A stretch of 32,000 nt of DNA from Opitutia bacterium KCR 482 (GCA_029269845.2 CP149973.1:840001-872000), one strand, 5' to 3'; numbered from the stretch's first letter, positions 2,024 through 19,786 are shown. Translations and numbers: made by a program. Notes: generated from the sequence alone by a model not told the origin.

Positions 2024-2043
2024 TTGGGAAACCAGTTTCCCAA
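2024..2043. promoter_or_regulatory. Candidate operator palindrome upstream of the HTH gene.
   Basis: TTGGGAAAC-CA-GTTTCCCAA has 9-bp perfect inverted arms and lies about 85 nt upstream of the ATG at 2129. Confidence 0.4.
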
Positions 2044-2128
2044 CTATTTTTTTCAGCCCTCCAATTCGATTTTTTGCGCAATTTTGCGGCTATTGATTTT
2101 TGAAAAATTTGACACGCGGACATTCTGC

Positions 2129-2386: not shown

Positions 2387-3171
2387 TGAGAATTCGCACG
2401 ATAAGCCAAATTTTAGCCGAAGAAAACGAGTCGATGTTTTCATTTGACGACGTTGTTATCGATAAAAACTTTCTGAGCAAGGGTCAAACGTGGGTGATTT
2501 CGGGCGCGACAGGAATCGGCAAAAGCGTTCTTGCCATGCAGCTTTCCCTCGGGCTCGCTTTTGGAGAAAAAACGCTGGGCCTTGAAATTTTTAAGCCCGC
2601 CAAAACGCTTTTGCTCCACAATGAAAACCCGATTATCGACGAGAAGATTTATTTTCGAGGGATTGTCTCGCAGTTTGCGCTCGATGAAAAGCCGAACGCT
2701 GACAGGCTAAACGAAAACCTGCGCATCTCCTGCAAAACAGGCCGCTACTATTCGGTGGACGAATTCATATCGAAACTGGACGCCTCTTTAAGCGCGGGCA
2801 AGTACGATGTGGTAATTGTGGATTCGCTGTCGTCGTTTGTGCATTGCAACTTTTCAGACCATGCGGCGGTTGCCGACCTCTTTTGCAAAATAAATGGGCT
2901 AAAATCGAAGCACAACTTCGCAATGGTCTTGATCCACCACTTCGACAAGCCGATGTTTTGGAGCAAAAGGATTCACCCCGCAAAGTGGTGCATGGGCGGG
3001 AAGGCAATCGGGATTTACGCAAACATAATGTCGGCGCTCGTGGGGACGAAAGAGGAGTCGGTTTTCTCGTTCAGGCATTACAAGCCGTTTGAGGATTCCG
3101 AAATTTCGCAGACGCTCATCGCGCAATGCCAAAACGGCAACACAGCTTGGGAAGAGGTGGAAAATGTCTAG
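2386..3171 (+). CDS. RecA/DnaB-like AAA ATPase (AAA_25-type).
   Basis: Walker A is GATGIGKS and Walker B is YDVVIVDSLSSF. A strong RBS (AAAGGAGAA) lies upstream. The gene is translationally coupled to its neighbours on both sides. Confidence 0.8.
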   Translation: MRIRTISQILAEENESMFSFDDVVIDKNFLSKGQTWVISGATGIGKSVLAMQLSLGLAFGEKTLGLEIFKPAKTLLLHNENPIIDEKIYFRGIVSQFALDEKPNADRLNENLRISCKTGRYYSVDEFISKLDASLSAGKYDVVIVDSLSSFVHCNFSDHAAVADLFCKINGLKSKHNFAMVLIHHFDKPMFWSKRIHPAKWCMGGKAIGIYANIMSALVGTKEESVFSFRHYKPFEDSEISQTLIAQCQNGNTAWEEVENV

Positions 3172-4624: not shown

Positions 4625-4625
4625 C

Positions 4626-4728
4626 AAATAGGGAAAATAGGCAAATAGATAAATAGGCAGAATGTATGAGACCTGCCAGTCGGGGAGAAAATAGGCAAAT
4701 AGGTAAATAGGTGAAATAGACAAATAGA
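4626..4728 (+). repeat. Iteron array 1, forward: nine AAATAGG/AAATAGA words in two clusters.
   Basis: Cluster 4626-4657 has 4 words and cluster 4688-4728 has 5 words, at 8-9 nt spacing. The array starts 2 nt after the stop of the upstream gene. Confidence 0.85.
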
Positions 4729-4800
4729 TTGCAATGCGCATAAAACTTGAAATTTAGTTGACTTTCAAACCGACATCTGGTCTCATGCTTTCTTTATCCC

Positions 4801-4872
4801 GCCCCTGTAGTTCAACGGATAGAACGGGCGTTTCCTAAACGCTAAATCGTGGTTCGATTCCACGTGGGGGCG
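4801..4872 (+). tRNA. tRNA-Arg (anticodon CCU).
   Basis: Manual cloverleaf: acceptor GCCCCTG/TGGGGGC (two G-U pairs), D arm GTTC-AACGGATA-GAAC, anticodon arm GGCGT-TTCCTAA-ACGCT, 4-nt variable loop, T arm CGTGG-TTCGATT-CCACG, discriminator G. No CCA is encoded. Confidence 0.9.
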
Positions 4873-4888
4873 CGGGTATGTTTTTGTT

Positions 4889-4927
4889 AAGCAGCATATT
4901 GCCATTTTTGCGCTCGCTGCTTTTTTT
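4889..4927 (+). terminator. Possible intrinsic terminator after the tRNA.
   Basis: AAGCAGC ... GCTGCTT stem followed by a T7 run. The 20-nt loop is large, so this is tentative. Confidence 0.35.
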
Positions 4928-5058
4928 GTGGGCATAATGCCGTAAGTCCCTAGTAATTGACCTAAAATCTGGCAGAAATCCAGTATATGCCCTTACCATT
5001 TTGGCTTAACGATATGCCCCAAATGGAAGAAAAAATTTCCCCACTGGAAGAATTAATA

Positions 5059-5099
5059 TCTATTTACCTATTTGTCTATTTTACCTATTTCCCCTATTT
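5059..5099 (-). repeat. Iteron array 1, reverse: five CCTATTT/TCTATTT words inverted relative to 4626-4728.
   Basis: Words lie at 5059, 5067, 5075, 5084 and 5093. Extra single copies lie at 5172 and 5444. Together with 4626-4728 they bracket the tRNA gene. Confidence 0.8.
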
Positions 5100-5252
5100 T
5101 GCCGGCAGTGGAGTTGCAGCCCGAACGCCCCGAAGGGAACAGGCGGAGGGCGAAACTTCACTTAGGCAAAATCTATTTCTTAAAAACTCTTTTTTATTCC
5201 ACCTGTTCTATCCCTTGCAGTTTGTCCAACCATTTGGACAAGTTATCGGGTT

Positions 5253-5640
5253 CTGTGAAATAGTCTATGACGTTAAATTCACAAGGTTGGCGATATGGGT
5301 CGAGTTCCATGGTGAAGCCCTCGTCGGTGAAATTAAACCAAGCTCAGTTAGTGAGCAAGTTTTATGCCCCATGAATCCACTGATTGTAAAGCTTTCGGGA
5401 GATGTTTGCTATGGCGTGGTGAAGTTGTGAATTTAACCCAATTTCTATTTAACTTCACCAGTGAAATTAGACCTGTGAAGTTGGGGTATTTTCTTTTTCA
5501 CCCATCGCGCCCGTCTGTGGAGCTGTGAAATTAGGGGGAGATATATACCGTAGGTATATCCCCCAAGTTCACAACTTCACAAGGCGCGAAGGGCGCGGTT
5601 GGGAGGCTTCTTTCTTCTCTCCACAACTCACCGCTTCACA
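5253..5640. repeat. Iteron module 2: GTGAA(A/G)TT words in both orientations around a 31-bp palindrome (5534-5564).
   Basis: Forward words include 5327, 5419, 5427, 5461, 5475 and 5525. The core is GGGGGAGATATATACC-GTA-GGTATATCCCCC. Reverse words AAGTTCAC and AACTTCAC follow at 5566-5581. The tail is AGGCGCGAAGGGCGCGGTTGGGAGGC. Outer inverted TGTGGAG (5516) and CTCCACA (5609) bound the module. Confidence 0.75.
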
Positions 5641-5659
5641 GACAGGTTCGCTATGATGC

Positions 5660-5830
5660 GGAGAAACGGGGAATATGGTGTAATTTCGTTTCTCTGTTTC
5701 TCTGGGGAAACGGACAAACGGGGAAACGGGGAATATTATTTTCCCTATCGCACCGTTAGTGGGGAAACGGGGAAACAGGGAGAGTATATATACCATAGGT
5801 ATATACTCCCGTTTCACCGATTCTCCACAG
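5660..5830. repeat. Iteron module 3: GGGGAAACGG-type words around a 33-bp palindrome (5778-5810), paralogous to module 2.
   Basis: The words are GAGAAACGGGG (5661), CGTTTCTC and TGTTTCTC (reverse, 5686-5702), GGGGAAACGG, ACAAACGG and GGAAACGG (5704-5730), and GGGGAAACGGGGAAACAGG (5761-5779). The core is GGGAGAGTATATATACC-ATA-GGTATATACTCCC. Reverse CCCGTTTCACC follows, then the tail AGGTGCGAAAGGTGCGGTAGGC. Confidence 0.75.
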
Positions 5831-6335
5831 GTGCGAAAGGTGCGGTAGGCTCATCGAGCTGACGAGATTCTCCATGCACCAAAGCAAAGCCGATTAATGG
5901 CTCTATACGAACTCGGGGCGACTTATGAATGTCAAGACTCATATTCGGCAATAGAGCGCCTTTAACGGGTAAAAGACTGCGTTTATTGGCGGGTTAAATT
6001 CGGCGTCATATACAGATGGGGGGGGTATCTAAGGAATCTATTAAACGCTGAGGAACGGCAGGGACGTTCGGCAGGGCGTTTTCTCCTTGCGAATGGCATT
6101 TTTGAAATGTTCCACTTTTTTTCGTTAAGACAGCCCACAATCCAAGTAAAATAGCGCATTCGCAGGCATTTTTTACAGCGGAAAAACTATGGAAAATGTT
6201 CCGTCTTTACGCGGCGCAATCTCCCATTAGCTTAACAACAAGCAACTTGGGAAACGAAAGATTTCCACCCTGCAATTTGCAAACAAAACCAATACGAAAT
6301 CTTAGGTAAAATTAGGAATACATATTGATAAAATA

Positions 6336-7292
6336 TCACTTCAAAAAGTATCCGCCATTTTTGGGCGCGCCCCTAAATTCGATAAACTCGCTTAACGATT
6401 TCAAGTATCGACTAAGCGTTCTGACGGGAATATTCAAGGCCTTTGCAATATCGTTTGTGTTTGCGCCTTGGTTGTTTCGGATAAACTCAAGCACGTCATT
6501 TACTCTGCCATTTAGTCTGCCGTTTACTCTGCCACTTTGGCTTGTTTGGTGCAGTTTTAGAGTCTTTAAAATCTCGCCAAGCATAAAATCCACGAATATT
6601 CCCGAATCGTTTTTTGCGGAGCTATCGTTAATTGCCTCATAATAATTTTGCTGATTATTATAAACCATTGTTTCCACCGGCAAATATTGAAATAATGGAT
6701 TGAACTTGGATAAAATTAAAGACTGCCAAAGCCTTCCCATTCTGCCGTTCCCGTCCGCAAACGGGTGTATAAACTCAAATTCATAATGGAACACGCAGCT
6801 TTTTATAAGCGGGTGGTCTTCCGAATTTTTCAGCCAATCAAATAAATTTTCTATCAATTCCGAAACCATTTCAGCTGGCGGAGCTATGTGGACGGCTTTA
6901 TCGTCGTCAAAGACCCCGACGCCGCCCGACCTAAATTTGCCCGCTTCCGAGACGAGAGATTTCATCATTTCGGAATGCGCTTTCAACAGGTCTGATATGG
7001 AAAAAGGATCATATTTTTGAAAACTATCGTAAGCTTTAATCGCGTTTTTTACTTCCATAATTTCCCTAAGAGGCGCGACAACTTTTTTTCCGTTTAAAAT
7101 ATCGCTAACTTGCTCCTCGGAAAGATTGTTTCCCTCTATCGCAAGCGAGGAATGAATTGTTTTTATCTTGTTGGATTTTCGCAGTCTTAGGGAGTCCTTT
7201 TCCATTAAAATCGAATGCCGTTCTAAGAGCGCGGAAATTTCGGCAATCATAGATATTGCTTTTGCGGACACTGTAAACGGCGGTTTCTTCAT
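6336..7292 (-). CDS. Fic/DOC family protein (class II) with a C-terminal winged-helix DNA-binding domain.
   Basis: HPFADGNGRMGR is the Fic motif. SLAIEGN fits the inhibitory (S/T)xxxE(G/N) motif. The C-terminal NDIAKALNIPVRTLSRYLKSL is HTH-like. Confidence 0.88.
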   Translation of the reverse strand: MKKPPFTVSAKAISMIAEISALLERHSILMEKDSLRLRKSNKIKTIHSSLAIEGNNLSEEQVSDILNGKKVVAPLREIMEVKNAIKAYDSFQKYDPFSISDLLKAHSEMMKSLVSEAGKFRSGGVGVFDDDKAVHIAPPAEMVSELIENLFDWLKNSEDHPLIKSCVFHYEFEFIHPFADGNGRMGRLWQSLILSKFNPLFQYLPVETMVYNNQQNYYEAINDSSAKNDSGIFVDFMLGEILKTLKLHQTSQSGRVNGRLNGRVNDVLEFIRNNQGANTNDIAKALNIPVRTLSRYLKSLSEFIEFRGAPKNGGYFLK

Positions 7293-7404
7293 ACGATTTT
7301 AACAAGCAAACATAGTAAGAATTTTCGTTCCCTTTTCAAGACTTTTAACGCCCAAAGTGCCATTTTGGCACTTTAGAAAATCTCTACATGGCACTTTGGA
7401 ACTT

Positions 7405-7698
7405 TTAGTAATCTTCTGGAAATAGCATAGTGGTAACGCTTCTGTCCCATTCGGTGATTATCCAGATTTTTTCACCGTCTGGAAGCGTGTATGCGGACAG
7501 CAATCTTTCGCCTGTTTTAAGGGCTTGGTCGTTTGCGTCCTTGTCCTCTTGGCAGACATCGCCCCAATCTCCTTGGGCGTGGAGGACAAGATATGGAAGC
7601 AATGCAAAGCGGTTCCTTTCACAATGCTCGAATAAATGTGTTGTTGATACGATTTCACCTAGGCGGAACTTTGATTCTATGAATACTCTTTCTTCCAT
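7405..7698 (-). CDS. Small conserved hypothetical protein (GDWG motif).
   Basis: The 97-aa ORF is tightly packed with its upstream neighbour (2-nt gap). HAQGDWGDVCQEDKDANDQAL...IWIITEWDRSVTTMLFPEDY resembles a small family I recall seeing on plasmids and ICEs, but I cannot name it. Confidence 0.6.
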   Translation of the reverse strand: MEERVFIESKFRLGEIVSTTHLFEHCERNRFALLPYLVLHAQGDWGDVCQEDKDANDQALKTGERLLSAYTLPDGEKIWIITEWDRSVTTMLFPEDY

Positions 7699-7700
7699 GA

Positions 7701-7970
7701 TTACGCTATGTTGAAGGTCGTTTTGATGTATTCTTTGCCTTTGTCCGTAAGCATTAGGACGGCGTCCCGATGCCCAGACCTTGAAATTATGTAGCCTTTC
7801 TTGTTAAGCGAGGACAGCACTCCAGATCGTGTTCTTGCGTTAAGCCCTCGGGCTTTGAGATTGTCCGAAAAGGCGTCAGCCCAAAGTGTGGACTCCACCC
7901 CGCTATCGCAGAATTCGTCCTCTATATAGGCTTGCAGGACTATCTTCTCTTTCTCGGTTAGCTTATCCAT
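7701..7970 (-). CDS. Small hypothetical protein, possibly winged-helix-like.
   Basis: The 89-aa ORF overlaps the upstream gene by 8 nt. I recognise no diagnostic motif. Confidence 0.55.
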   Translation of the reverse strand: MDKLTEKEKIVLQAYIEDEFCDSGVESTLWADAFSDNLKARGLNARTRSGVLSSLNKKGYIISRSGHRDAVLMLTDKGKEYIKTTFNIA

Positions 7971-8166
7971 TGGAGACCTCCTGCACGTCGTCTATTTCAA
8001 AGGTTCTGCTTACGTCGATTTCGTTGCTCGTATCGTAGAGGTCGTATTCCCTTTGATTGTCGCTTACCTCTTGGCGGGCTTCGTCGGCATTTTCAGCTTC
8101 GATTTCAATCTCGCCAGTTTTGATTGTCGTTACGATGTATGTGTATGTGATTTTGTATGTCTTCAT
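7963..8166 (-). CDS. Small highly acidic hypothetical protein (67 aa).
   Basis: I chose the internal ATG at 8166 (MKTYKITYTY...) over the ORF-track start at 8256. It has 17 Asp/Glu against 6 Lys/Arg. It is first in a three-gene minus-strand operon divergent from hsdM. Confidence 0.5.
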   Translation of the reverse strand: MKTYKITYTYIVTTIKTGEIEIEAENADEARQEVSDNQREYDLYDTSNEIDVSRTFEIDDVQEVSNG

Positions 8167-8603
8167 TTTCGCCCTTTGTTGCTTATTGGTTGACTTGCCT
8201 GATTGGCGGTTTGTCCATGTTGCTATTATACCATAATTTAAATAAATTTGCAACATTTTTATTTATCTTTTTTATTGCGCACCAACCACTTACATAAATA
8301 ACCGAGAGCAAAAAAGACGAAAAATAATCTTGAATTTTTTAGCGGGAAATCTGATAGGTTCGAAATCTATATTATTCCGAGTGTATTTTTTGTACCTATA
8401 GAAGTTGTACTTTCTTCAATGTTCAAAAAGATATTACAAGTATCACATCCTGAAACGAAGAATTTTTAGGGTAAATATTTTTTATTACAAATCGGCTTTT
8501 GGGCATTTTAGGATTGAACGGTTATAAAAAATATTTATCGTGTTGAGCGTTTAAATTTGCTAGGGAATTTCAATGATTATATTCACATAATAAAAGGTGA
8601 AAT

Positions 8604-10325
8604 ATGTTAAATAAACAGTTGAAAGAATTAAAAGATAGGTTGTGGGCGACGGCGGATCAACTCAGAGCAAACTCCGGTTTGAAGGCCACCGAGTATGCAG
8701 AACCAGTGTTAGGTTTGATTTTCCTTAGATTTGCCGACGTGAAATACTCTAAGCATGAAGCAGAGATAATCCGTGAATTTAACAAGCTCAAAGGTTCTCG
8801 TATGGGAAGGCCTATTCACGAGATTGCTATTGAAAGATGCGGATATTATCTCCCGAAAGAATCCAGATATAATGAACTCTTGAATTTACCAGATAATGCT
8901 AACCTTGCCCAAGCCGTCAAAAATGCAATGATAGCGATTGAAAAGTACACTAAAGAGCTTGAAGATACGCTTCCCAAAGATATTTATTACAATGTAAACA
9001 CTCAAGAAAATCCGTTGGTACTTTCCAACCTCTTGAGAAACTTCAAAGATATTCCAGAGAATGTGGAGCTGGATATTTTCGGTGAAATATATGAATACTT
9101 TTTAGGTAAGTTTGCATTGGCAGAAGGCCAAGGCGGGGGAGAGTTCTTCACGCCATCAAGCGTTGTTAAATATATGGTTGAAGTTCTGAACCCCAAAGAA
9201 GGTAAGATACTTGACCCCGCATGTGGTTCTGGCGGTATGTTCGTACAAACAGCACACTACATTGAAAGACACAAAAATAAAGGCGAGCATATCAACTTGA
9301 GAGCTTATGGAATTGAGAAAACTCAACAGACCGTAAGACTTGCCAAGATGAACCTTGTGTTAAACAATGTCAGAGGGGAAATAACCCACGCTAACTCTTA
9401 TTATAGCGACCCTTATGAAAGCTATGGGAACTTTGATTATGTAATGGCGAATCCCCCATTCAATGTTGATGATGTTTTACTGGGGAAAGTAAAAGGCCAG
9501 CCAAGATTTAATGAATATGGAATTCCTCAGAACAAGCCCAAGAAAAAGAAGAATGATGTTAAAGAAACCGTTCCGAATGCCAACTATTTGTGGATAAACT
9601 TGTTTGCTACTTCCTTGAAAGATACTGGAAGAGCAGCTTTAGTTATGGCAAACTCAGCTTCTGATGCTGGGAATAGCGAATTAGATGTAAGAAAGAAACT
9701 TATTGAAAGTGGAGTTATCAAACAAATGGTTACTCTTCCTTCAAATATGTTCTCTTCTGTAACACTCCCAGCTACATTGTGGTTCTTTGATAAGGCTAAA
9801 GAACATAAAGACGAGATCCTTTTTATTGATGCAAGAAATGTCTTTACTCAGATAGACAGAGCACACAGGAAGTTTTCAGCAGAACAGATTAGAAACTTAG
9901 GTGTTATAACAAGACTCTATGAAGGTGATACAGAAGAATTCACCAAGTTAATTAAAGAGTATGAAACCAACATAGATAATGCTCCAGAAACTTCTGATGA
10001 AGAAGATAATCCACCTAAGAGCTACTGGCAAGAAAATATAGATTGGTTAAAGGAACGCTTCCCAGAAGGTAAATACAGAGATGTTATTGGTCTGTGTAAA
10101 GTAGCTAAACTTGAAGGTGAAGACGGTGTTAAAGACCAAGACTATTCCTTAAATCCCGGCAGATATGTAGGAGTTGTCATTGAAGATGACGGAATGACAG
10201 AGGAAGAGTTCAAGAAGAAAATATTGGCACTACATACAGAATGTCTAACTATATCAAAAGAAATAATTGATCTAGAAAAAGATATAAACAGTAATATTCA
10301 AGAACTATTTGGAGCTAATTCATGA
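8604..10325 (+). CDS. hsdM: Type I restriction-modification system, DNA methyltransferase subunit M.
   Basis: The N-terminus is HsdM_N-like (LWATADQLRANSGLKATEYAEPVLGLIFLRF). SAM motif I is DPACGSGGMF and catalytic motif IV is NPPF (VMANPPFNV). An RBS (AAGGTGA) is present. The stop overlaps the hsdS start (ATGA). Confidence 0.95.
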   Translation: MLNKQLKELKDRLWATADQLRANSGLKATEYAEPVLGLIFLRFADVKYSKHEAEIIREFNKLKGSRMGRPIHEIAIERCGYYLPKESRYNELLNLPDNANLAQAVKNAMIAIEKYTKELEDTLPKDIYYNVNTQENPLVLSNLLRNFKDIPENVELDIFGEIYEYFLGKFALAEGQGGGEFFTPSSVVKYMVEVLNPKEGKILDPACGSGGMFVQTAHYIERHKNKGEHINLRAYGIEKTQQTVRLAKMNLVLNNVRGEITHANSYYSDPYESYGNFDYVMANPPFNVDDVLLGKVKGQPRFNEYGIPQNKPKKKKNDVKETVPNANYLWINLFATSLKDTGRAALVMANSASDAGNSELDVRKKLIESGVIKQMVTLPSNMFSSVTLPATLWFFDKAKEHKDEILFIDARNVFTQIDRAHRKFSAEQIRNLGVITRLYEGDTEEFTKLIKEYETNIDNAPETSDEEDNPPKSYWQENIDWLKERFPEGKYRDVIGLCKVAKLEGEDGVKDQDYSLNPGRYVGVVIEDDGMTEEEFKKKILALHTECLTISKEIIDLEKDINSNIQELFGANS

Positions 10326-11437
10326 ATTATAAGAAACTTAGTGATGTAGCTTATTATTCAGAGTTACGCACAAAAGATATAACTATTGAAAATTACATAA
10401 CGACAGACAATATGCTTCCTAATATTGGGGGAGTATGTTTAGCTTCTTCAATCCCAGACAGCAAGACAGCTAAATATTATAAAGACGGAGACATTCTTCT
10501 CTCTAATATCCGACCTTATTTCTGTAAGATATGGTATGCAAATAGATGTGGTTCTGCTTCAAATGACATATTAGTGATAAAGAATAATAAAGATGTTAAT
10601 TCAAAGTTCCTATACTATGTCTTATGTGATAAGAACTTCTTTAATTATGATACTGTTACATCAAAGGGCACTAAAATGCCCAGAGGAACCCCTAATGCAA
10701 TAATGAAATACCTTGTTCCTGATATTGATGATAAAGTACAAATAAAAATAGCTTCTATATTATCTGATTATGATGATTTGATTGAGAAGAATAACCGTAA
10801 GATTGAGATTCTGCAAGAAATGGCAGAAGAGTTATATAAGGAATGGTTTGTTCGCTTCCGTTTTCCCGGCTACAAGACAGCTAAGTTTGAAAATGGTATT
10901 CCTAAAGACTGGGGTGTTGATAAGATAAAGAATAAGGTAAATAGACTTCCATTTAATAAACTGTATAAAGAAGCTGACCTTGAAAAAGAAGGAAATGTTA
11001 TTGTTATTGACCAATCTGAAAAAGAATATTTAGGATTTCATAATAATGAACCTTCACATGTTGCAAGTATTGATGAACCTATTTGTTTGTTTGGAGACCA
11101 CAGTTGCAAGTTTAAACTCATGTCTGAACCATTTTCTCTAGGTGAAAATGTTGTACCATTCAAGGGGCAAGGTGTTAATCCTTACTATCTTTTCTATGCT
11201 ACACACCACATTATTGAAACAGAAGAATATAAACGACATTGGGGTTTATTCACATCAAAGAAAATTCTTATTCCAACAGAACCAATACAAGATAAGTTTG
11301 CAGAGTTTATAAAAGTTATACAGCAACAAACGAATACAATAACCAAATGCCAGAGATTATTGATTAAACAGCGTGATTTATTGTTACCAAGACTAATGTC
11401 TGGTAAACTGGAAGTGAAGGTAAAACAAGAGGTGTAG
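10322..11437 (+). CDS. hsdS: Type I restriction-modification system, specificity subunit S.
   Basis: The central conserved region is LIEKNNRKIEILQEMAEELYKEWFVRFRFPGY and the C-terminal conserved region is LLIKQRDLLLPRLMSGKLEV, giving a two-TRD layout. It sits between hsdM and hsdR. Confidence 0.92.
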   Translation: MNYKKLSDVAYYSELRTKDITIENYITTDNMLPNIGGVCLASSIPDSKTAKYYKDGDILLSNIRPYFCKIWYANRCGSASNDILVIKNNKDVNSKFLYYVLCDKNFFNYDTVTSKGTKMPRGTPNAIMKYLVPDIDDKVQIKIASILSDYDDLIEKNNRKIEILQEMAEELYKEWFVRFRFPGYKTAKFENGIPKDWGVDKIKNKVNRLPFNKLYKEADLEKEGNVIVIDQSEKEYLGFHNNEPSHVASIDEPICLFGDHSCKFKLMSEPFSLGENVVPFKGQGVNPYYLFYATHHIIETEEYKRHWGLFTSKKILIPTEPIQDKFAEFIKVIQQQTNTITKCQRLLIKQRDLLLPRLMSGKLEVKVKQEV

Positions 11438-11438
11438 T

Positions 11439-14400
11439 ATGGCGAACTTTATATCAGAAGATAATATAGAACAAGCGGCCATTAAGTTATTGGTTGAAAA
11501 CCATAACTATAAAGCAATCCGTTGCTTTACGGAAAGTCCTGATACACTTCCTGATAACTCAGGTAGAGAAAATAAGAAACAAGTTGTTCTCCCGGAAATC
11601 CTATTGGAACAGTTGATTAAACTGAATCCGAATATCCCGGAAGAGACTGTTAAAAGTCAGTGGATAGAATTATGCCATACTCCAGCGACCTATGAGATAA
11701 TGGATGAAAACTATAAGAACTATTTGAAAATCAAAAATGGTATTGATGTTACATACCAAAAGGATGGCAAGAAAGAATCCAACAAGTTAATACTTATAGA
11801 TTTCAATAACCCGGAAAATAACAGCTTCCATGTTGTATCTCAGCTATGGATTAAAGGTGAAACATATAACAGAAGACCAGACCTCATAATATATGTAAAC
11901 GGTTTACCTCTGGTATTCATAGAATTAAAGAACTCAAATATCCCGGTAAAAAATGCTTATGACAAGAACTTGAAGGATTATTTGAAAGATATTCCGTACT
12001 TATTTAATTATAACCAGATATGCGTATTATCTAACGGTATTGAAACAAGACTGGGAAGTTTCAAGGCAGATTATAACTACTTCTTTGAATGGTTAAAAAT
12101 TGAAGGTGAAGATGAAACCCCGGATAGAAAGCGTATCCGAGAGCAAGGAGTAAGTTTGGAATACTTCATCAAGGGTCTTTGTAAACCAGAGAACTTGCTG
12201 GATTATGTTGAAAACTTTATTCTGTACGACAGAAAGAGTACAAAGATTATTGCCAAGAACCACCAGTTCTTCGGTGTAAATAATGCTTATGAGTCATTCC
12301 TTCACAGAAAAGAGAAAGGCGGAAAACTCGGTGTATTCTGGCACACTCAAGGCAGTGGGAAAAGCTATTCCATGGTATTTCTGGCAAACAAGATTAACAG
12401 AAAGTGTGCTGGTAATTATACATTCCTTGTTGTTACGGACAGAGCTGATTTAGATACTCAGATTTATAAGAACTTCCTAAGAACAGGATTTATTAGCGAA
12501 AAGGAACAAGTAAGACCGAAGAACAGCAAAGAGCTGAGGAAAGAACTCACTACAAATAAGAAGATATTGTTCACTTTAATTCACAAGTTCCGTTATGACA
12601 AGGGGAAAGAATATCCCATTTTGTCTGAAAGAGACGATATTGTTGTGGTTGTTGATGAAGCTCACAGAACCCAGTATAAAGACCTTGCGGAAAATATGAG
12701 AAAAGGTCTGCCAAATGCCCAATATATCGCATTTACGGGTACGCCATTATTGGGTTCAAAGAGACTCACTAACCAATGGTTTGGTGATTATGTAAGTGAA
12801 TATAACTTTTCTGATTCAATAGAAGACAATGCAACAGTCCCTTTGTACTACGTCAAAAGAGTCCCGGAAGTCAGCCTTGAAAACGACTTTTTTAATGACG
12901 ATTTCATTGAAATATTGGAAGATGAAAACCTAACAGAAGAAGAACAAAAGAGGCTTGAAACCCATTATGCCAAAGAACTGGAAGTTATCAAGAGAGAGGA
13001 CAGACTTGATACTATCGCTAAATACATTGTGAAGCATTTCCCATACAGAGGATTTCGCGGCAAAGGTATGGTAGTTTCTGTCGATAAATTCACGGCAGTT
13101 AAGATGTACGATAAGGTTCAGCATTATTGGAAAGAAGAGATAAAAGAACTAAACAGAACCATATCCCAGACAAGAGATGAATTTGAAAGACAACGCTTGA
13201 AAGATATAGTTAATTATATGAACAGCGTTGAAATGGCCGTTGTAATAAGTACAGAAGGAACAGAAGACGAAGAGAAAAATTTCAACAAGGAAGGGCTCAC
13301 CATTAAACCGCATATCCTGCGAATGAGCCAAGTTGATGAAAACGGTTATGATATAGAAGATAACTTTAAGGATCCAAAACACCCGCTCCAATTGGTATTT
13401 GTATGCGCAATGTGGCTGACAGGATTTGATGCGCCTTCTGTTTCAACGCTATACCTTGATAAACCTATGAAAGGTCATACCCTGATGCAGACAATCGCTA
13501 GGGCAAACAGAGTGTACGAAAACAAAACCTGCGGTTTGATTGTAGACCATATCAATGTATTTAAGCACTTGAAAAGAGCATTGGCGGATTATGCTTCAAA
13601 TGATAATGTTGATACGCCAGTAAAGGATATTGAAATATTATTCCGTAAATTAAACGAATGTATAGATATGGCTTGCAAATTCTGCTCAGCTCACAATGCA
13701 GAATTGAAAGATATTGTTGATGAAGATGAAGTGTTCAAGAACATAGAGAAGTTTGAATCTTATGCAAACAGTATTGTTGGTAATGATGAAGTGAAGAATG
13801 AATTTCAAGTGTTGGCAAATACGGTTGAGAATATATATGAGTCATTGAAACCAGAAATATTCACTATGGAATTTGCAAACAAGCCGTATAAAGAAGCTAT
13901 TTTGTACCTTCGAGACATCATTAACGGTAAAGTAAGACCAGAGAAAATTGAATCGGCGCAGGGAAGAATAAACAAGCTATTAGACCAAAGTGTAATTGCA
14001 ACTGATGATGCGAAGAAATATATCATCAATGAAGAAGGGAAAGAGTTGGATTTATCTATTATCGATATAGATGAATTAAAAGCTGAGTTTAAAAAAGTTA
14101 CCAACAAGAATCTTGTTATATCTGACCTTAGAAAACATATTGAGGGTAAGTTAGAAATAATGCTCAAGAAGAACAAGACTAGAACCAAGTTCGCTGAACG
14201 GTTTAAGGGTATTATCGACGAATATAATGCTGGTGGTTCGCAGAATGAAGACTTCTATGAAAAACTCCTTGAGCTGATGCGAATGATGAAAGAAGAAGAG
14301 GCGCGACATGTTAAAGAAGAGCTTTCAGAAGAAGAACTGGAAATCTTTGATTTGTTATGCAAAGACTCATTAACCAAAGAAGAAGAAAAAAAGGTTAAGT

Positions 14401-14633
14401 TGGCGGCCAAAAGCTTATATAATGCCTTACTCGAGAATAAAAAAGAGCTCTTTGTTGTTGATTGGCAGAACGACCCAACCCCGAGAGAAAAAGTAAGAAG
14501 TAAAATTAATTCTGTATTGAATGAGTATCTTCCGAAATCCTACGACAGAATTATATTTCAAACAAAGAGCGACATCATATTTCAGCACATAGTAGAACAA
14601 GCGACAATGGGATATAATTGGATAGCCGCATAG
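11439..14633 (+). CDS. hsdR: Type I restriction endonuclease subunit R.
   Basis: The N-terminal PD-(D/E)xK core is RPDLIIYVNGLPLVFIELKN. Helicase motifs are HTQGSGKS (I), VVVDEAHRTQ (II), FTGTPL (III) and QTIARANR (VI). An RBS (GAGGTG) is present. Confidence 0.95.
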   Translation: MANFISEDNIEQAAIKLLVENHNYKAIRCFTESPDTLPDNSGRENKKQVVLPEILLEQLIKLNPNIPEETVKSQWIELCHTPATYEIMDENYKNYLKIKNGIDVTYQKDGKKESNKLILIDFNNPENNSFHVVSQLWIKGETYNRRPDLIIYVNGLPLVFIELKNSNIPVKNAYDKNLKDYLKDIPYLFNYNQICVLSNGIETRLGSFKADYNYFFEWLKIEGEDETPDRKRIREQGVSLEYFIKGLCKPENLLDYVENFILYDRKSTKIIAKNHQFFGVNNAYESFLHRKEKGGKLGVFWHTQGSGKSYSMVFLANKINRKCAGNYTFLVVTDRADLDTQIYKNFLRTGFISEKEQVRPKNSKELRKELTTNKKILFTLIHKFRYDKGKEYPILSERDDIVVVVDEAHRTQYKDLAENMRKGLPNAQYIAFTGTPLLGSKRLTNQWFGDYVSEYNFSDSIEDNATVPLYYVKRVPEVSLENDFFNDDFIEILEDENLTEEEQKRLETHYAKELEVIKREDRLDTIAKYIVKHFPYRGFRGKGMVVSVDKFTAVKMYDKVQHYWKEEIKELNRTISQTRDEFERQRLKDIVNYMNSVEMAVVISTEGTEDEEKNFNKEGLTIKPHILRMSQVDENGYDIEDNFKDPKHPLQLVFVCAMWLTGFDAPSVSTLYLDKPMKGHTLMQTIARANRVYENKTCGLIVDHINVFKHLKRALADYASNDNVDTPVKDIEILFRKLNECIDMACKFCSAHNAELKDIVDEDEVFKNIEKFESYANSIVGNDEVKNEFQVLANTVENIYESLKPEIFTMEFANKPYKEAILYLRDIINGKVRPEKIESAQGRINKLLDQSVIATDDAKKYIINEEGKELDLSIIDIDELKAEFKKVTNKNLVISDLRKHIEGKLEIMLKKNKTRTKFAERFKGIIDEYNAGGSQNEDFYEKLLELMRMMKEEEARHVKEELSEEELEIFDLLCKDSLTKEEEKKVKLAAKSLYNALLENKKELFVVDWQNDPTPREKVRSKINSVLNEYLPKSYDRIIFQTKSDIIFQHIVEQATMGYNWIAA

Positions 14634-14646
14634 TAATCTTTTTCAC

Positions 14647-14689
14647 TTGTTCGGAATTTCCGAACAACTTGTAAGAAATCCTTACAAGT
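14647..14689 (+). terminator. Two tandem hairpins after hsdR.
   Basis: TTGTTCGGAA-T-TTCCGAACAA (14647-14667) is followed by ACTTGTAAG-AAATC-CTTACAAGT (14667-14689). No strong T-run follows. Confidence 0.5.
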
Positions 14690-14910
14690 TCAGACTTGTG
14701 AGAAAACGAGCCTCAAGAAAATGATATCGAGTTTTTGACGATTTTCCTGCGAAGTGATAGCGCAAATCAATTTTCGCCTAACAAAATCGCTCCTTAAAAT
14801 AAAACATCTGATTCCTGACAACAGGCATTCCTTCTCCCTTTTTCCCAGAATTTGTCTTTAAAAAACGCACAATAAAAATAGGCAAAAAGGAAGTAGCCTG
14901 TTTTTTCATT

Positions 14911-14939
14911 TTGACTCATTATCCCATTGTGGCTCTAAT
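14911..14939 (+). promoter_or_regulatory. Possible sigma70-type promoter for the 1,234-aa ORF.
   Basis: TTGACT-N17-TCTAAT lies about 145 nt upstream of the ATG at 15085. The host's promoter rules are unknown. Confidence 0.3.
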
Positions 14940-15084
14940 AGATTTAAGATTCTTTTTCTGTAACTTTAGATAATCTTTTCTCTTGAAAATAAAAACACAG
15001 GATTACATAATAATAATCATGTTAAACAACATACGTTTTTACTATCTATAAAAGTAATTCCTACGAATAGCAGTCTATAAACAT

Positions 15085-18000
15085 ATGGAAAACAATTATA
15101 CATACGACATAACCCGTTTGGATTTAGAAAATTTAGCACAACGAACTTCGATGAGGTATAATATGTCAACCCATATTCGAGATCTTCTTTTCAATTTTTT
15201 TGGGATTAGAGCAACGGTAAAATTTCAGGGAAGTGAAGATGTCGGTTCGCCTGGATATGACGGGGACTTATTTATACCGGAAGACATGAAGAATCCAATT
15301 TTCCCAGAGGGGAATAGTGTCTGGGAATTGAGTAATCAAGTAGATATAGATGGCAAAGCAAATTCAGACTATAATAAACGGCTTGCGAATGCTGATTCAC
15401 AGAAAACATATGTCCAAGCAACTTTTAGAAGATGGGATAATAAAGAAAAATGGGCAGAAGAAAAAAGAAATGAGGGAAAATGGAAAGATGTAATTGCGCT
15501 CGATAGTCGCGATTTTGAATCTATTTTTAACAATCCACAATCTGGTTCGGCGAGATTGCGATTATTAACCTGCCTGGGAAAAGTTACTACAGGAGTGAAA
15601 TTTGTAGAATCAGAATGGGAAAGAATTTATTCGAGATTGGGAGAAAAACAACTCCTTCCTAAATCATATTTAATGGGGCAAACAAAAGCAATAACAGATT
15701 TGAACGAATTCTTATGCAGCGAAGATAGGATTATATATGTAAGAAGTGATTTTTCATCAAGCGATTCAAAAGCTTTTTTATTGGCATTTTTTGTGCACAA
15801 TAAAGAACATTCTCCATCGGTTGTTATAGTTGAAAACAAAGATGTTCTTGATTATTTAATAGATATGGGATTCTCGGGAATTATCATTGTGGATCCAAGT
15901 TTAAAATTAAGCGGAGAAACTTTTTATAGGTGTAATTCTTCCAATGCTAAAATTTTGCTTCCTATTTATTCAATAACTAACGCTAAAAAGGCAATTCAAC
16001 TAAATAGATTACCTAATACGAGTTACGTAGAGCTATTGCAGAATATTGGGTTTTCGGAAGAAGATTCTATGCGATATTCTAATATGACGAACGGCTCATT
16101 GACTTGTTTGAGGTGTTTTATCAATGATTCATTTCCAGTATCGCCATGCGCTCTAAACGACAAATCTTATACGCTTTTTGCTGTTGGTTCTTGGGATGTA
16201 AATTTCCCTGGCGATGTAAATACATTAGAGAGATTAGCCAAAGTTTCATATGCTGAAATTGAAACCACAGTAAGGGATATGGAACAATATGAATACCCTT
16301 TTATTGTGGGCGCAAAAAAGAAAGTTTCAAGTTATAATAAGATTGGGGCATGGTTCTTTTTTGCGCCACATATAACTTCATCTTTCATTGATTCATTTTT
16401 AAACGAAGCTTATAATGTATTAACAGATGTTGATCCAAAATGGGATTTAACTGCAGATAAAAGATTCGCGGCAGAATTATATGGTAAAAAAGCCAAATAT
16501 TCTAATACTATAAAAAGGGGTATTGCAGAAACATTATTGTATATGATGGCCTTTGCAGACAGAGCGCCTGATATGAAAAGCCATTTAGTTGCAGGTATAA
16601 AACGCCTATTAATTCGTGTTTATGAATGTTTAGATACTTGGGAGAAATGGGCTTCTGTTGATTCTATATTACCTTTGCTTGCAGAAGCAGATCCAGATAT
16701 ATTCTTAGAATATATGGAAAGGACTATTGCTAGTAAACAACAATTGTTCATAGAATTGTTAAGCGATGATAAAGATTCCTTCACATTTGGAGATTGTAAA
16801 CATTCTGGATTACTTTGGGGATTGGAGTTAGTATTATGTTTTCCTGAACACTCTCGACGTACAGCTGATGTTCTTGTTGATCTAGCAGTTATTGATCCTA
16901 TGGGGAATTGGGGGAATAGACCAAAAAATTCATTGACTAGAATTTTTCTTTATTGGCTACCGCAGATACCATTAAAAATTGAAGATCGACTTTCGATTTT
17001 AAAATCTCTATACAAAAAACATACCAATATTGCTATATCTATTATAAAATCCATTATAAATACACATACATCTGGACAAATCTATTATCCTAAAATCACA
17101 AAGTACGAGCTTTGGAAAGACAATAAAGAAGATTCCACATTTTATTACTCGGAACTGTGTAATTTCTATCTTGAAGTCGCGAGGGATCACCCCAAGGAAA
17201 TAGTATATCTATTAGACAATCTTGGGTTTCATCGTGGATTACAGTTTAAGTTGTACGAACTTTTAAACGGAATAGATATTTCTGCTTGGAATGATTCTGA
17301 TCGTTTAAAAATTTGGGAAAAAGTACGGAATGACATATGGTCCTACAATCAATTTGAAGGACATCAGAATTGGCAAATAACTCCACAAAGGAAAGAAACG
17401 CTTCGAGTATTATACAATAAATTTAAACCGAAAGACAAAATTGTATTGTATTCAAAATATTTCGAACAGGGATTAAGATTAGCAGAATATAATGATGTTC
17501 CAAAGGATCTAAAAGAACGTGAAATTTATAATAGGGACTTCCAAAAAAAAGCATTGGAAGAGTTCCTAAGAGAATTCGGAGTAGATGGACTTTTAAGTTT
17601 AGTTAAAATATCCGAAGATGTGAATGCTATTGTTCGTGCGATTGAAGATGCGAAAGATATTGACGCCATTTTTAATTCTATCCCGTCATGTCTTAATTCT
17701 GACAACCCAAAGTTATTTAATTTTGCGCAACTACTATTATACCATATATATAATGTAAATCGTCAGTTCGTTTTGTCATATATCGCGAATTCTTCTTTTG
17801 ATGATATTATGAAATCAAAGATTTTCGCTTCATTGCCCTATGACGATGGTGTAAAACTATTACTCGATCAGGCTTCTTCTACAATAAAAGAAAACTACTG
17901 GGTAAACCTTTCTCTTATACCGATAGACCCTAATTCGGAATATATAGAAGAAATCGCTTCTGGACTTTTGTTTGCTGAACGCATCAAAGACCTTATAAAA

Positions 18001-18789
18001 ATACTGTGGTTATCAAATAAAACTTTTACAATAAATTTCCTATGCGAAGTCTTAGATAAAGCAAGGGAGCGCAAATATCATGAATTTATAGCGTCTTCTT
18101 ATTATGAAATTATTATAATTTTTAAAAAAATATATTCACACCCTGAGATTAAAAATGTGGATAAAAATTTGATGGTAGGATTAGAAATATCATATTTGGG
18201 AATTTTTAATGGATATAACGACATTGAACCCTTATTTCTCCAAGATAATATTTTTTCTAGTCCACAATTCTATATAGATCTTGTAAAGGGCGCATATAAG
18301 AATGATAAAATGGAGGAATTCGTTAAGGATTCTAATTTGTCCGAGATGAGTTATCGCATACTAGATGAAATTAGAAATGTTCCTGGAAAAAATGAAGAAA
18401 CTTTTGATGATACAATTTATAAAGAATGGATTCAGGAAATAATTAAGTTATCTAAAGAACAAGAATATTTCGTTGGTGTAAAATGCGCCTTACCTAAGGT
18501 TCTTATACATACGCCTGCAGACGAAAAAGATGGGATATGGCCGCATCGTGCATTAAGAGATATTTTAGAAGAACTTAAAGATCCTGATTTAGAATTAAAT
18601 TTAGTCATTGCAAAAATGAATTCTAGAGGAGTTCGGTCAGGAAGTTTTAAACAAGAAAAAGATGAAGCAAAATATTACAGAGAACAAGCATCGAAATTAG
18701 CAATAATCTACCCACGAACTTCTTTAATTTTAAATAAGATCGCAGCCGAATTAGATTCATATGCAGATTTTTTTATCGATGAATTCTAA
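15085..18789 (+). CDS. Large hypothetical protein (1,234 aa), no recognisable family. It has a short mixed N-terminal domain followed by a long, apparently helical-repeat body.
   Basis: A single uninterrupted low-GC ORF with only short antisense ORFs. Scanning by eye found no Walker A (GxxxxGK[ST]). The N-terminal GYDGDLFIPE...SVWELSNQVDIDGKANSDYNKR is only loosely nuclease-like. Confidence 0.85.
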   Translation: MENNYTYDITRLDLENLAQRTSMRYNMSTHIRDLLFNFFGIRATVKFQGSEDVGSPGYDGDLFIPEDMKNPIFPEGNSVWELSNQVDIDGKANSDYNKRLANADSQKTYVQATFRRWDNKEKWAEEKRNEGKWKDVIALDSRDFESIFNNPQSGSARLRLLTCLGKVTTGVKFVESEWERIYSRLGEKQLLPKSYLMGQTKAITDLNEFLCSEDRIIYVRSDFSSSDSKAFLLAFFVHNKEHSPSVVIVENKDVLDYLIDMGFSGIIIVDPSLKLSGETFYRCNSSNAKILLPIYSITNAKKAIQLNRLPNTSYVELLQNIGFSEEDSMRYSNMTNGSLTCLRCFINDSFPVSPCALNDKSYTLFAVGSWDVNFPGDVNTLERLAKVSYAEIETTVRDMEQYEYPFIVGAKKKVSSYNKIGAWFFFAPHITSSFIDSFLNEAYNVLTDVDPKWDLTADKRFAAELYGKKAKYSNTIKRGIAETLLYMMAFADRAPDMKSHLVAGIKRLLIRVYECLDTWEKWASVDSILPLLAEADPDIFLEYMERTIASKQQLFIELLSDDKDSFTFGDCKHSGLLWGLELVLCFPEHSRRTADVLVDLAVIDPMGNWGNRPKNSLTRIFLYWLPQIPLKIEDRLSILKSLYKKHTNIAISIIKSIINTHTSGQIYYPKITKYELWKDNKEDSTFYYSELCNFYLEVARDHPKEIVYLLDNLGFHRGLQFKLYELLNGIDISAWNDSDRLKIWEKVRNDIWSYNQFEGHQNWQITPQRKETLRVLYNKFKPKDKIVLYSKYFEQGLRLAEYNDVPKDLKEREIYNRDFQKKALEEFLREFGVDGLLSLVKISEDVNAIVRAIEDAKDIDAIFNSIPSCLNSDNPKLFNFAQLLLYHIYNVNRQFVLSYIANSSFDDIMKSKIFASLPYDDGVKLLLDQASSTIKENYWVNLSLIPIDPNSEYIEEIASGLLFAERIKDLIKILWLSNKTFTINFLCEVLDKARERKYHEFIASSYYEIIIIFKKIYSHPEIKNVDKNLMVGLEISYLGIFNGYNDIEPLFLQDNIFSSPQFYIDLVKGAYKNDKMEEFVKDSNLSEMSYRILDEIRNVPGKNEETFDDTIYKEWIQEIIKLSKEQEYFVGVKCALPKVLIHTPADEKDGIWPHRALRDILEELKDPDLELNLVIAKMNSRGVRSGSFKQEKDEAKYYREQASKLAIIYPRTSLILNKIAAELDSYADFFIDEF

Positions 18790-18833
18790 AATAGCGCAAG
18801 AGAAATATTATCTAAAAATAATAAATAAAAATG

Positions 18834-18862
18834 TTGCGTATTTTGTCGTGATGTGGTAATAT
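18834..18862 (+). promoter_or_regulatory. Sigma70-like promoter with an extended -10 element.
   Basis: TTGCGT-N17-TAATAT with TGg immediately upstream of the -10. It lies 23 nt upstream of the ATG at 18885. Confidence 0.45.
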
Positions 18863-18884
18863 AGATACCATAACGGGACAGGGT

Positions 18885-19367
18885 ATGATGATAAGCAAGA
18901 CGAAGATTTCAACTGAGGGGTTTGAGAAGGTTGAGATTACTGCGGAGATGGCTGAGATATTCGGGCTTCCGAAGAAAGCCATTGGGAAATGGGCGGTTGT
19001 TGCAGAAGATGATGTTGAGCGTCGCTTAATGAAAGTTCGTTTAGACGGCTATTTTGCGGACGACAAGTACAACAATCATCAGCGCATTTCCAACAGGATT
19101 TGGGGGCAGATGTTTGGCGGGGTGCGCTGTGCAAAATTTGAATTTTCCAAGCTATGCACGCGCAAGAAGAACTGGATATTGGCGCTTATTGACGAATTTG
19201 AGAAAATCCCCGAACTTGCCGTATCTCTGCGGAAGTTGAGCTTTGACGACATCGTTTTGCAAATTATAGACGACACGAATTCTGAGCGTCCGCAGGGCAA
19301 GGCGTACAGCTCGATTGCGAGCGCGATAACCTATTGGAAATACAAATATGGAGACAATGGAAGATGA
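18885..19367 (+). CDS. Hypothetical protein (160 aa).
   Basis: The ORF has mid-range GC, unlike the AT-rich gene upstream. A GGGACAGGG purine run precedes the ATG. I recognise no motif. Confidence 0.6.
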   Translation: MMISKTKISTEGFEKVEITAEMAEIFGLPKKAIGKWAVVAEDDVERRLMKVRLDGYFADDKYNNHQRISNRIWGQMFGGVRCAKFEFSKLCTRKKNWILALIDEFEKIPELAVSLRKLSFDDIVLQIIDDTNSERPQGKAYSSIASAITYWKYKYGDNGR

Positions 19368-19482: not shown

Positions 19483-19570
19483 GTTTTTAAAAACCGACAT
19501 TTGCAACATCACAAGCATCAACAACATACAAAACCAAGAAAGCCCGAAAATGAATACAACCAGAAGGAGA

Positions 19571-19616
19571 TTAGGAAACGCTCGTTCTATCCGTTGAACT
19601 ACATGGGCGGGATAAA
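19571..19616 (-). pseudogene. Fragment of tRNA-Arg(CCU): the 5' half through the anticodon loop plus 8 nt of 5' flank. Not a functional tRNA.
   Basis: The reverse complement TTTATCCCGCCCATGTAGTTCAACGGATAGAACGAGCGTTTCCTAA matches 4793-4838 at 44 of 46 positions. The downstream sequence (TCTCC...) cannot form the anticodon stem or a T arm. Confidence 0.85.
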
Positions 19617-19786
19617 TTAGGTAAAAGAATGCACAGCTTCCTTTTAAAGTCAATCTAATTTCAGCCGTATAGGGTGTGTTTTAGCGGTATACGATTTTTG
19701 TTTTTTTGAAAAAAAACGCATCGTCGAATATTATATCTTTTCATTATATAGCAACTATGTCTTGATTTTCGTTATATGCTTGCGCG

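Follow-up and report, generated by a model that had tools for sequence, protein, structure and literature searches.

What is encoded by the open reading frame (ORF) of 1,234 amino acids (aa) that follows a type I restriction-modification (R-M) operon in Opitutia bacterium KCR 482, and does it belong to that operon? The ORF lies at 15085-18789 (+ strand) of the 32,000-nucleotide stretch of this genome that was analysed here (GCA_029269845.2, CP149973.1:840001-872000; hereafter the window), and an earlier note, made from the sequence alone, had proposed it as a candidate defence gene. Judging from sequence comparisons and structure models, this big gene is very probably a defence gene, and by analogy with the Avs8 (PD-lambda-4) system we favour, with a probability of about 0.6, a single-gene Avs8-like abortive-infection sensor-nuclease that would assemble without ATP. 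The earlier proposal is in this respect strengthened by the architecture of the protein, by its distant homology to Avs8 and by gene neighbourhoods in at least 10 of ~18 loci.

The ORF begins with an ATG, which is backed by homologues starting at the same MENNY/MDNNY, and runs through 1,234 codons with 0 internal stops at a GC content of 0.328, which confirms the low-GC ORF that had been described. The reading of the complete ORF as a putative Avs8-like sensor-nuclease with a degenerate NOD draws on its translation, on a family of collinear proteins of ~1,260 aa and on two AlphaFold2 models, one of residues 1-1200 (mean pLDDT 86.2) and one of residues 1-350 (pLDDT 90.6, pTM 0.88). These models show three parts, namely a restriction-endonuclease-like head, a NOD-like module and a helical solenoid of ~780 residues. 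When residues 1-350 were compared with the PDB by Foldseek, the top match was Avs4 bound to portal (8dgf_B; E 3.1e-5, prob 1.0), with an alignment of ~400 columns that runs across both nuclease and NOD, and the next matches were Avs5 filaments (9nc9, 9jap) and Avs3 (8dgc_B). Further matches of these N-terminal 350 residues included AAA+ proteins (NSF, TRIP13, RFC, ClpB, ORC/Cdc6) and the restriction endonucleases MspJI, FokI and EcoT38I. The long model (residues 1-1200) retrieved generic HEAT/ARM solenoids from the PDB (CAND1, importins) at a TM-score of ~0.2, which is uninformative; SAMD9 and the Avs5 filament were also among these solenoids. Taken together, the fold matches and the domain order indicate that the predicted layout follows the Avs plan, i.e., an N-terminal effector nuclease, a central NOD-like domain and a C-terminal helical repeat sensor. 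At the sequence level, the Pfam, NCBIfam and PADLOC scans of the window protein returned no match at E <= 0.1, and sequence searches of the PDB, with the window protein and with the family profile, gave nothing meaningful; among the checks proposed in the earlier note, direct Pfam and PADLOC scans were therefore empty, and AlphaFold modelling followed by Foldseek led to Avs4, Avs5 and Avs3.

The head (residues 1-165; 15085-15579, + strand) is a predicted effector domain of the restriction-endonuclease-like (Mrr/PD-(D/E)xK-type) kind, as supported by the model, Foldseek and conservation. Its topology in the model of residues 1-350 is alpha-beta-beta-beta-alpha-beta-alpha-beta (helix 23-42, strands 44-47, 60-64 and 76-83, helix 88-102, strand 107-113), which contains the alpha-beta-beta-beta-alpha-beta core of the restriction-endonuclease-like fold, and no other domain of the family is as conserved as the head, which has 46% mean pairwise identity and 21.5% of its columns strongly conserved. 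As in the Mrr-type/PD-(D/E)xK fold, an Asp stands at the start of beta2, in the 'PD' position of the fold (D59 of the GYDG motif; codon 15259-15261, + strand), and a Glu lies in beta3 (E81 of the SVWE motif; codon 15325-15327, + strand); both are 100% conserved among 145 full-length members and are predicted to be catalytic. In contrast to that fold, position +2 after E81 is Ser/Gly and not the canonical Lys, and an invariant Lys is found ten residues on, in the motif K91-A-x-x-D95-Y-x-K-R99 at the start of the helix that follows beta3 (15355-15381, + strand), where conservation in the same 145 members reaches 0.99 for K91, 0.99 for D95 and 1.00 for R99. K91 is thus a candidate relocated lysine and a plausible substitute for the catalytic one, accompanied by a conserved Asp and Arg. 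The earlier description of the N-terminus as PD-(D/E)xK-like and lacking the Lys (residues ~55-100) is backed by both the model and the conservation. Note that neither Pfam Mrr_cat nor other nuclease models matched the protein or the 34 members of the first round of homologue search.

The second part (residues ~170-310; 15592-16014, + strand) is, according to Foldseek and motif analysis, a Rossmann-like alpha/beta domain of the AAA+/STAND-like kind from which the Walker A and B motifs are missing. In the 145 full-length members, the turn after beta1, where Walker A would lie, has the consensus [DE][ST]x[ED]EAxAF with no GK[ST], and beta3, the Walker B strand, ends in L[ILV]L[IV]P. Walker-A-like strings are present in 8 of the 145 members only, at non-homologous sites, and in the window protein there are 0, so that the motifs of a functional STAND NTPase (Walker A and the Walker B acidic residues) are missing throughout the family. 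Since both motifs are missing family-wide, the sequences indicate that the NOD of this family is a pseudo-NTPase; it is also among the least conserved domains, with 28% pairwise identity and one strongly conserved column. Small helical and winged-helix-like modules follow (residues 311-450; 16015-16434, + strand), with the invariant residues W370 and D377, and the remainder is an all-helical solenoid, presumed from the model and conservation to be the sensor (residues 451-1234; 16435-18786, + strand). The solenoid consists of a conserved block at 451-700 (LAEAAP, GLLWALE, NRPxxSL, WxPQT), a variable block at 701-950 and a conserved C-terminal block with NxRG...GGxQER. The ~1,000 residues behind the head had been read as helical repeats; this stands for the solenoid from ~450 to 1234, and it does not stand for residues ~170-450, which are the AAA+/STAND-like alpha/beta domain and the helical modules. 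Other motifs were searched for in the 1,234-aa protein: no Walker A and no DEAD/DEAH box were found, no transmembrane segment was predicted (maximum Kyte-Doolittle score over 19 aa, 1.21), and none of the three Rx4-6H strings falls on a conserved column. A HEPN identity was accordingly rejected, as the conserved R...H is missing in the family, and the corresponding negatives of the earlier note (P-loop, DEAD/DEAH, trustworthy HEPN, transmembrane segment) hold.

The protein had been called an orphan, and this description has to be abandoned. The first homologue search returned 33 clusters of collinear proteins of ~1,250 aa, five at 60-91% identity and the others at 22-26%, all of them unnamed or 'hypothetical', with a close clade in Verrucomicrobia/Opitutia. 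The exhaustive search with a hidden Markov model (HMM) of the first 350 residues then identified 4,255 representatives (50% clustering) at E <= 1e-3, of which 2,624 reached E <= 1e-30 and almost all are ~1,260 aa long, so that the family comprises at least 4,255 clusters at 50% identity. A scan of genome contigs with the single protein found one locus only. Members occur in Proteobacteria, Bacteroidota, Actinobacteria, Firmicutes and Verrucomicrobia. They are also carried by 24 plasmids or chromids, of which 11 are conjugative and whose hosts are alpha-, beta- and gamma-Proteobacteria, Actinobacteria and Bacteroidota. As tblastn against 50,697 phage genomes found no family member (0 matches), a phage-borne origin was rejected. 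On sequence grounds the window protein sits on a divergent branch, with a median identity of 24% to other members compared to a family median of 33%. Its clade departs from residues that are at least 90% conserved (W17L, R199Q, R344C, W585C, T628I, W651I, G850V, and further G1137P, G1172N, G1188F and D1231I), and in the first-round alignment the turn standing in place of the P-loop holds a Ser-rich insertion (SDFSSSDS; residues 222-229), with the putative catalytic residues intact. These departures suggest a fast-evolving, AT-rich branch.

Variation at the N-terminus concerns a minority of the members. Extra N-terminal heads, mostly XRE-type helix-turn-helix (HTH) domains, were found in 25 of 145 members (17%), and the window protein and the other 83% do not have them. 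The Pfam scan of the 34 first-round members gave matches to these HTH heads only, and in PADLOC they resemble the defence-system regulators capH and C proteins; the RefSeq names given to some members ('helix-turn-helix transcriptional regulator', 'HigA family antitoxin') derive from the accessory HTH head only. The member on the Shewanella baltica OS117 plasmid pSBAL11702 (WP_014620926.1; locus L017, 5128-8691) aligns to family HMM positions 387-1288 only (E 3e-241), and its head is a different module of ~280 residues, which shows a classical D...QxK nuclease signature and in which nothing NOD-like was matched. Such an exchange of heads on a constant body is expected if the head acts as effector and the body as sensor. 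A further plasmid-borne member, on Buttiauxella pBTX_57 (L016, 3546-8646), is devoid of the N-terminal ~370 residues; as the gene immediately upstream encodes a group II intron reverse transcriptase/maturase, insertional inactivation is likely in this case.

The statement that the protein matches no named family did not hold once the family as a whole was scanned, since profiles link it to Avs8A and folds to Avs4/5/3. The PADLOC model PD-Lambda-4_A, which corresponds to Avs8A, matched 2 of the 34 first-round members and 13 of 39 further diverse members (15/73 in all; best E 2.2e-7), and a second PD-Lambda-4_A model matched 2 of these 39. By comparison, four other PADLOC models gave one match each in the 39-member scan and none of them recurs in the core, the PADLOC results being otherwise confined to the accessory HTH heads (capH, C-protein-like), and by chance alone any one model of the 5,027 would be expected to match ~0.008 times over the 39 scans (E <= 1). 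PADLOC scans of 27 individual members located one PD-Lambda-4_A match, the only one with a position: residues 586-694 of member P0023 align to positions 595-707 of the 1283 of the model (E 1.7e-4). This is the helical block with the highest conservation, and it occupies corresponding positions in two proteins of equal length. The homologue search with a C-terminal profile returned family members only and no Avs8A, and no Enterobacterial Avs8 emerged when plasmids were searched by tblastn with P0023. From these sequence comparisons we conclude that the family is probably best described as distantly related to Avs8A and built on the same plan; the criteria used for annotation would not make it a member.

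Avs8 is the present name of PD-lambda-4, and its Avs8A protein (~142 kDa) combines an Mrr nuclease, a P-loop NTPase and a C-terminal repeat sensor, binds HK97-fold major capsid proteins and then degrades double-stranded DNA (10.1101/2025.07.02.662641; 10.64898/2026.01.04.697583). The family resembles Avs8 in its size (~1,250-1,280 aa) and in the order of an Mrr/PD-(D/E)xK-type nuclease, a NOD and a C-terminal helical repeat sensor, and PD-Lambda-4_A is the only defence-protein profile that recurrently matches its core. EcAvs8A appears to require ATP hydrolysis (10.1101/2025.07.02.662641), and KpAvs8 has Walker motifs that are likewise degenerate (10.64898/2026.01.04.697583, legend of Extended Data Fig. 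10). However, the similarity remains far under annotation thresholds, Walker A/B are wholly gone in this family and not merely weakened, the nuclease has no canonical (D/E)xK lysine, and Avs8 consists of two genes, Avs8A and the small Avs8B, whereas no downstream partner is conserved across the loci that we inspected. With Avs4, Avs3 and Avs5, which provide the best structural matches of the nuclease and NOD half, the family shares the tripartite effector-NOD-sensor logic, the swapping of N-terminal effectors and the location in defence islands; in contrast, no similarity is found at the sequence level, the canonical nucleotide-binding motifs are gone from this NOD, and the HEAT/ARM-like solenoid has no specific match to the Avs3 and Avs4 sensors. 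Functional analogues may be seen in DSR1/DSR2 (SIR2 with a helical sensor) and in Upx, a divergent PD-(D/E)xK nuclease that senses terminase (PMC13601566), as these too are large single sensor-effector proteins without ATP-driven assembly. Nevertheless, DSR1/DSR2 use SIR2 effectors, in Upx the nuclease is C-terminal and the sensor beta-rich, and this family keeps a NOD-shaped module. The PADLOC Dsr and Upx models matched neither the window protein nor the scanned members, and a Upx-like layout was rejected on the opposite domain order together with the missing PADLOC Upx match.

Our findings also concern the surroundings of distant members, which were judged qualitatively over ~18 inspected loci with a reach of ~10 kb. 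The earlier note had suggested asking whether homologues lie near defence genes, and at most of these loci they do: clear defence or toxin-antitoxin neighbours were found in the window and at L001, L002, L009, L006, L010-L012, L014, L015 and L017, which qualitatively amounts to a location among defence genes, toxin-antitoxin genes or mobile genetic elements. As examples, a type I R-M system and a restriction endonuclease stand beside the member at L011, an Acetobacter plasmid homologue lies ~3 kb from a type I system, and L012 carries Abi, SIR2, two RES-Xre pairs and AbiEii. In addition, RT-SLATT, a Shedu fragment and DUF2357 were found at L015, a PDDEXK nuclease and ImmA/IrrE at L014, helicases, a reverse transcriptase and transposases at L006, and at L017 an Abi protein and superinfection-exclusion protein B (SieB) flank the member. 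At L004 (GCA_029781115.1), the neighbours are a SACS-UPF1-like helicase and RhuM: a 1,680-aa protein (14138-19180) with SACS (sacsin HATPase-like) and AAA_11/AAA_12 UPF1-like helicase domains is encoded directly downstream of the member and is followed by RhuM, and this protein may itself be another uncharacterised defence gene.

The mechanism that we favour for the Avs8-like sensor-nuclease can be outlined as follows. In the uninfected cell, the protein would be an inactive monomer, and upon infection its C-terminal helical solenoid would bind a conserved phage protein, which by analogy with Avs8 may be the HK97-fold major capsid protein. Binding would lift an autoinhibition and lead to oligomerisation through the central NOD-like module; as no Walker A/B is present in the whole family, this assembly is expected to be nucleotide-independent. 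The oligomer would then bring the N-terminal Mrr/PD-(D/E)xK-type heads together, with a rewired active site in which D59 and E81 sit on the canonical strands and the Lys is supplied by K91 of the next helix, so that DNA would be degraded and the infection aborted. We infer the defence function, the trigger, the oligomerisation, the DNase activity and the role of K91 from the sequence and models.

Several observations weigh against this reading. The window protein itself, like most members, has no PADLOC match, and it is tied to Avs8A through membership of the family at ~22-26% identity; the PD-Lambda-4_A match that was located covers a helical block of ~110 residues and not the nuclease or the NOD. 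Because the match is limited to this helical block and because Avs sensors also occur in non-STAND systems (Dsr1, a sensor common to Avs7; 10.64898/2026.01.04.697583), strict homology to Avs8A may not extend over the whole protein. The Foldseek matches to restriction endonucleases are weak (E ~0.02), and the Foldseek TM-scores are low (0.3), owing to differing inter-domain angles. Moreover, the helical body holds invariant polar residues (E534, E581, N611/R612, E1034, E1191), which are unusual for a purely shape-complementary sensor and could form a catalytic or small-ligand site. Finally, no recognisable defence neighbours were seen at L007, L008 and L013, the member at L008 being a solo chromosomal insertion between housekeeping genes.

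The invariant residues of the body bear directly on the alternative that survives best, which we nonetheless consider improbable, namely a nucleic-acid-directed restriction-like enzyme (type IV-like or a 'genome-integrity' sensor) whose helical body, together with the HTH head of those members that have one, binds DNA or RNA and whose N-terminal nuclease cuts foreign or modified nucleic acid, with no sensing of a phage protein. HEAT-like repeats can bind DNA, as AlkD does, and many invariant charged residues of the solenoid could form the walls of a groove that binds nucleic acids or nucleotides; such an enzyme would also be in keeping with a restriction-endonuclease-like head with invariant acidic residues, with the HTH heads of 17% of the members and with a gene that often adjoins R-M systems and other nucleases. 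However, the specific profile matches are to the protein-sensing Avs8A, the NOD-like module and the Avs4/5/3 fold matches point to an oligomerising receptor, and the HTH heads, which match defence regulators (capH, C proteins) and not target-recognition domains, are absent from 83% of the members.

Clearly less probable again is a role in the maintenance or regulation of mobile elements (as an addiction module, by keeping competing elements out, or as a large regulator of transcription) in place of phage defence. The carriers of the family could suggest it, as they include integrative elements and the 24 plasmids or chromids, 11 of them conjugative, and so could the parAB and toxin-antitoxin neighbours and the RefSeq names of a transcriptional regulator and of a HigA family antitoxin. 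These names, however, stem from the accessory HTH head, which is absent in most members and in the window protein, whereas the conserved core is a predicted nuclease on a receptor-like scaffold with an Avs8 link. The solo chromosomal insertion at L008 also speaks against such a role, and since defence genes are commonly cargo of mobile elements, this location does not discriminate between the two readings.

It is very improbable that the protein serves the neighbouring type I R-M system as an accessory component or fourth subunit, since this idea, which could draw on the shared strand, the position directly downstream of hsdR, the similar low GC and the Acetobacter plasmid homologue near a type I system, is largely refuted by a linkage that is not conserved: hsdMSR lies outside the DNA block common to any of the four close relatives, where unrelated cargo is found upstream, sister elements keep hsdR with other genes in place of the big gene, a gap of 451 bp with two hairpins separates hsdR from the big gene, and most distant homologues have no hsd genes nearby.

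The operon itself (8604-14633, + strand; hsdM 8604-10325, hsdS 10322-11437, hsdR 11439-14633) was identified with Pfam and PADLOC, and its GC content of 0.32-0.38 agrees with the AT-rich composition that had been noted for it directly upstream of the big gene, the flanking secretin gene being at 0.558 (host ~0.55). It is an independent neighbouring cargo. The view that the big gene is docked to it was not sustained, as the DNA block common to the relatives (L001, L002, L003, L009) extends over ~14.8-19.6 kb only and the slot upstream holds other genes there: a MvaI/BcnI restriction endonuclease and a methylase-like gene, with HigB/HicB also near, at L001 (big ORF 91% identical), DUF4268 at L002 (76% identical), and a PLD-SNF2 helicase with an Eco57I/TaqI_C methylase at L009 (97% identical). 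As the relatives carry other cargo in that slot, the R-M linkage is incidental, and the comparison indicates that the big gene sits in a variable cargo slot, or hotspot, of an integrative element. The L009 cargo (1942-9521) encodes a 1,106-aa PLDc_2 and SNF2/Helicase_C protein, a 1,123-aa Eco57I/N6_Mtase/TaqI_C protein and, as a separate product of 292 aa, a TaqI_C specificity protein; a resolvase is close by, and the three genes may form a phase-variable type IIG/ISP-like system.

Between hsdR and the big gene, the two hairpins that had been described at about 14647-14689 are real: they neighbour each other just 3' of the hsdR stop (14648-14689, + strand; dG -25.6 kcal/mol, z = -4.8), on the hsd side and not in the block common to the relatives, but a T-tract is missing, and terminator prediction gave no site there. 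The left end of the common block was placed by blastn at 14776 (L009, 97%) or 14857 (L002/L003, 79.5%), so that a leader (14776-15084, + strand) travels with the big gene. A possible promoter had been suggested in this leader; the region upstream of the ORF contains 22 sigma-70-like matches against 23.5 +/- 4.9 in shuffled sequences, i.e., not above chance.

Downstream, a 160-aa ORF (18885-19367, + strand; GC 0.46, compared to 0.33 for the big gene) is a backbone gene of the integrative element and not an obligate partner. Indeed, sister elements from human-gut metagenomes keep hsdS-hsdR and this ORF, while T5orf172 and HipBA replace the big gene. A 65% identical copy is present at L002 and none beside the 91%-identical homologue at L001; its own family is far more abundant, as it forms 143 clusters at >=59% identity, of which several contain 100-480 sequences, and it occurs mostly where the big gene is absent. 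No PADLOC (including PD-Lambda-4_B), Pfam or NCBIfam model matched it. A role as an Avs8B-like partner was rejected on these grounds, namely its place in the element backbone, its absence at L001 and the missing PD-Lambda-4_B match. In gut Verrucomicrobia integrative elements (L018-L021), this ORF family marks the end of the cargo slot, and beyond it come an HTH_17 gene, Fic and an integrase.

The right boundary of the island carries a truncated or degenerate copy of tRNA-Arg (19540-19616, - strand; best part 19569-19616), recognised by alignment to tRNA-Arg(CCT) at 4801-4873 (+ strand). The copy is inverted, and its near-identity extends across ~45 nt of the 5' part and a further 8 nt of flanking sequence upstream. 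At 19616-19619 the homology with L002 and L009 stops, and beyond this point GC climbs to the host level; at L001, the homologous big gene is closely followed by a full tRNA-Arg-like stretch. A direct att repeat of the tRNA 3' end was not found, only this inverted copy, which despite its orientation may be what remains of an att site or boundary of the integrative element. The element also has an HTH_17/AAA_25/DUF3987 (primase-helicase-like) module (1928-4624, + strand), which the intact tRNA-Arg separates from the defence cargo. At L002, two such modules (5574-7809 and 14706-17195) flank the big gene, suggesting tandem or nested elements. Two Fic genes are located in the island, at 534-1619 (+ strand) and 6336-7292 (- strand), with the architectures Fic_N+Fic+SoFic-like_C and Fic plus winged HTH, and a Fic gene is also present in related elements (L009, 14988-15959).

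Altogether, the sequence comparisons suggest very likely a defence gene, in which the loss of the P-loop and the rewiring of the nuclease would be new relative to Avs8. The family is not recognised by Pfam, NCBIfam and PADLOC v2, and the 2026 STAND survey (10.64898/2026.01.04.697583) may already include it under Avs8 or another clade. A broader proposal, which we advance tentatively and hold to be rather doubtful, is that the family, which numbers at least 4,000 clusters at 50% identity, represents a widespread class of NLR-like immune receptors whose NOD has turned into a nucleotide-free scaffold, with ligand binding alone driving assembly and firing a nuclease with a relocated catalytic lysine; the strongly conserved polar pocket of the solenoid may then recognise something other than the capsid protein of Avs8. 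Surveys and pipelines seeded on sequences of NTP-binding domains would systematically miss such receptors. If the Avs8-like reading holds, thousands of entries named 'hypothetical protein', or mislabelled 'helix-turn-helix transcriptional regulator', would be Avs8-like immune sensors, and the family would be a natural experiment on the role of the NOD in STAND/NLR receptors, in which the shape is kept and the nucleotide-binding motifs are lost. It would raise the question whether ligand-induced oligomerisation and effector firing can proceed without ATP, a question also raised by the degenerate Walker motifs of KpAvs8. The window itself would show an integrative element of gut Verrucomicrobia whose swappable cargo hotspot combines a type I R-M system with a sensor of the abortive-infection type.

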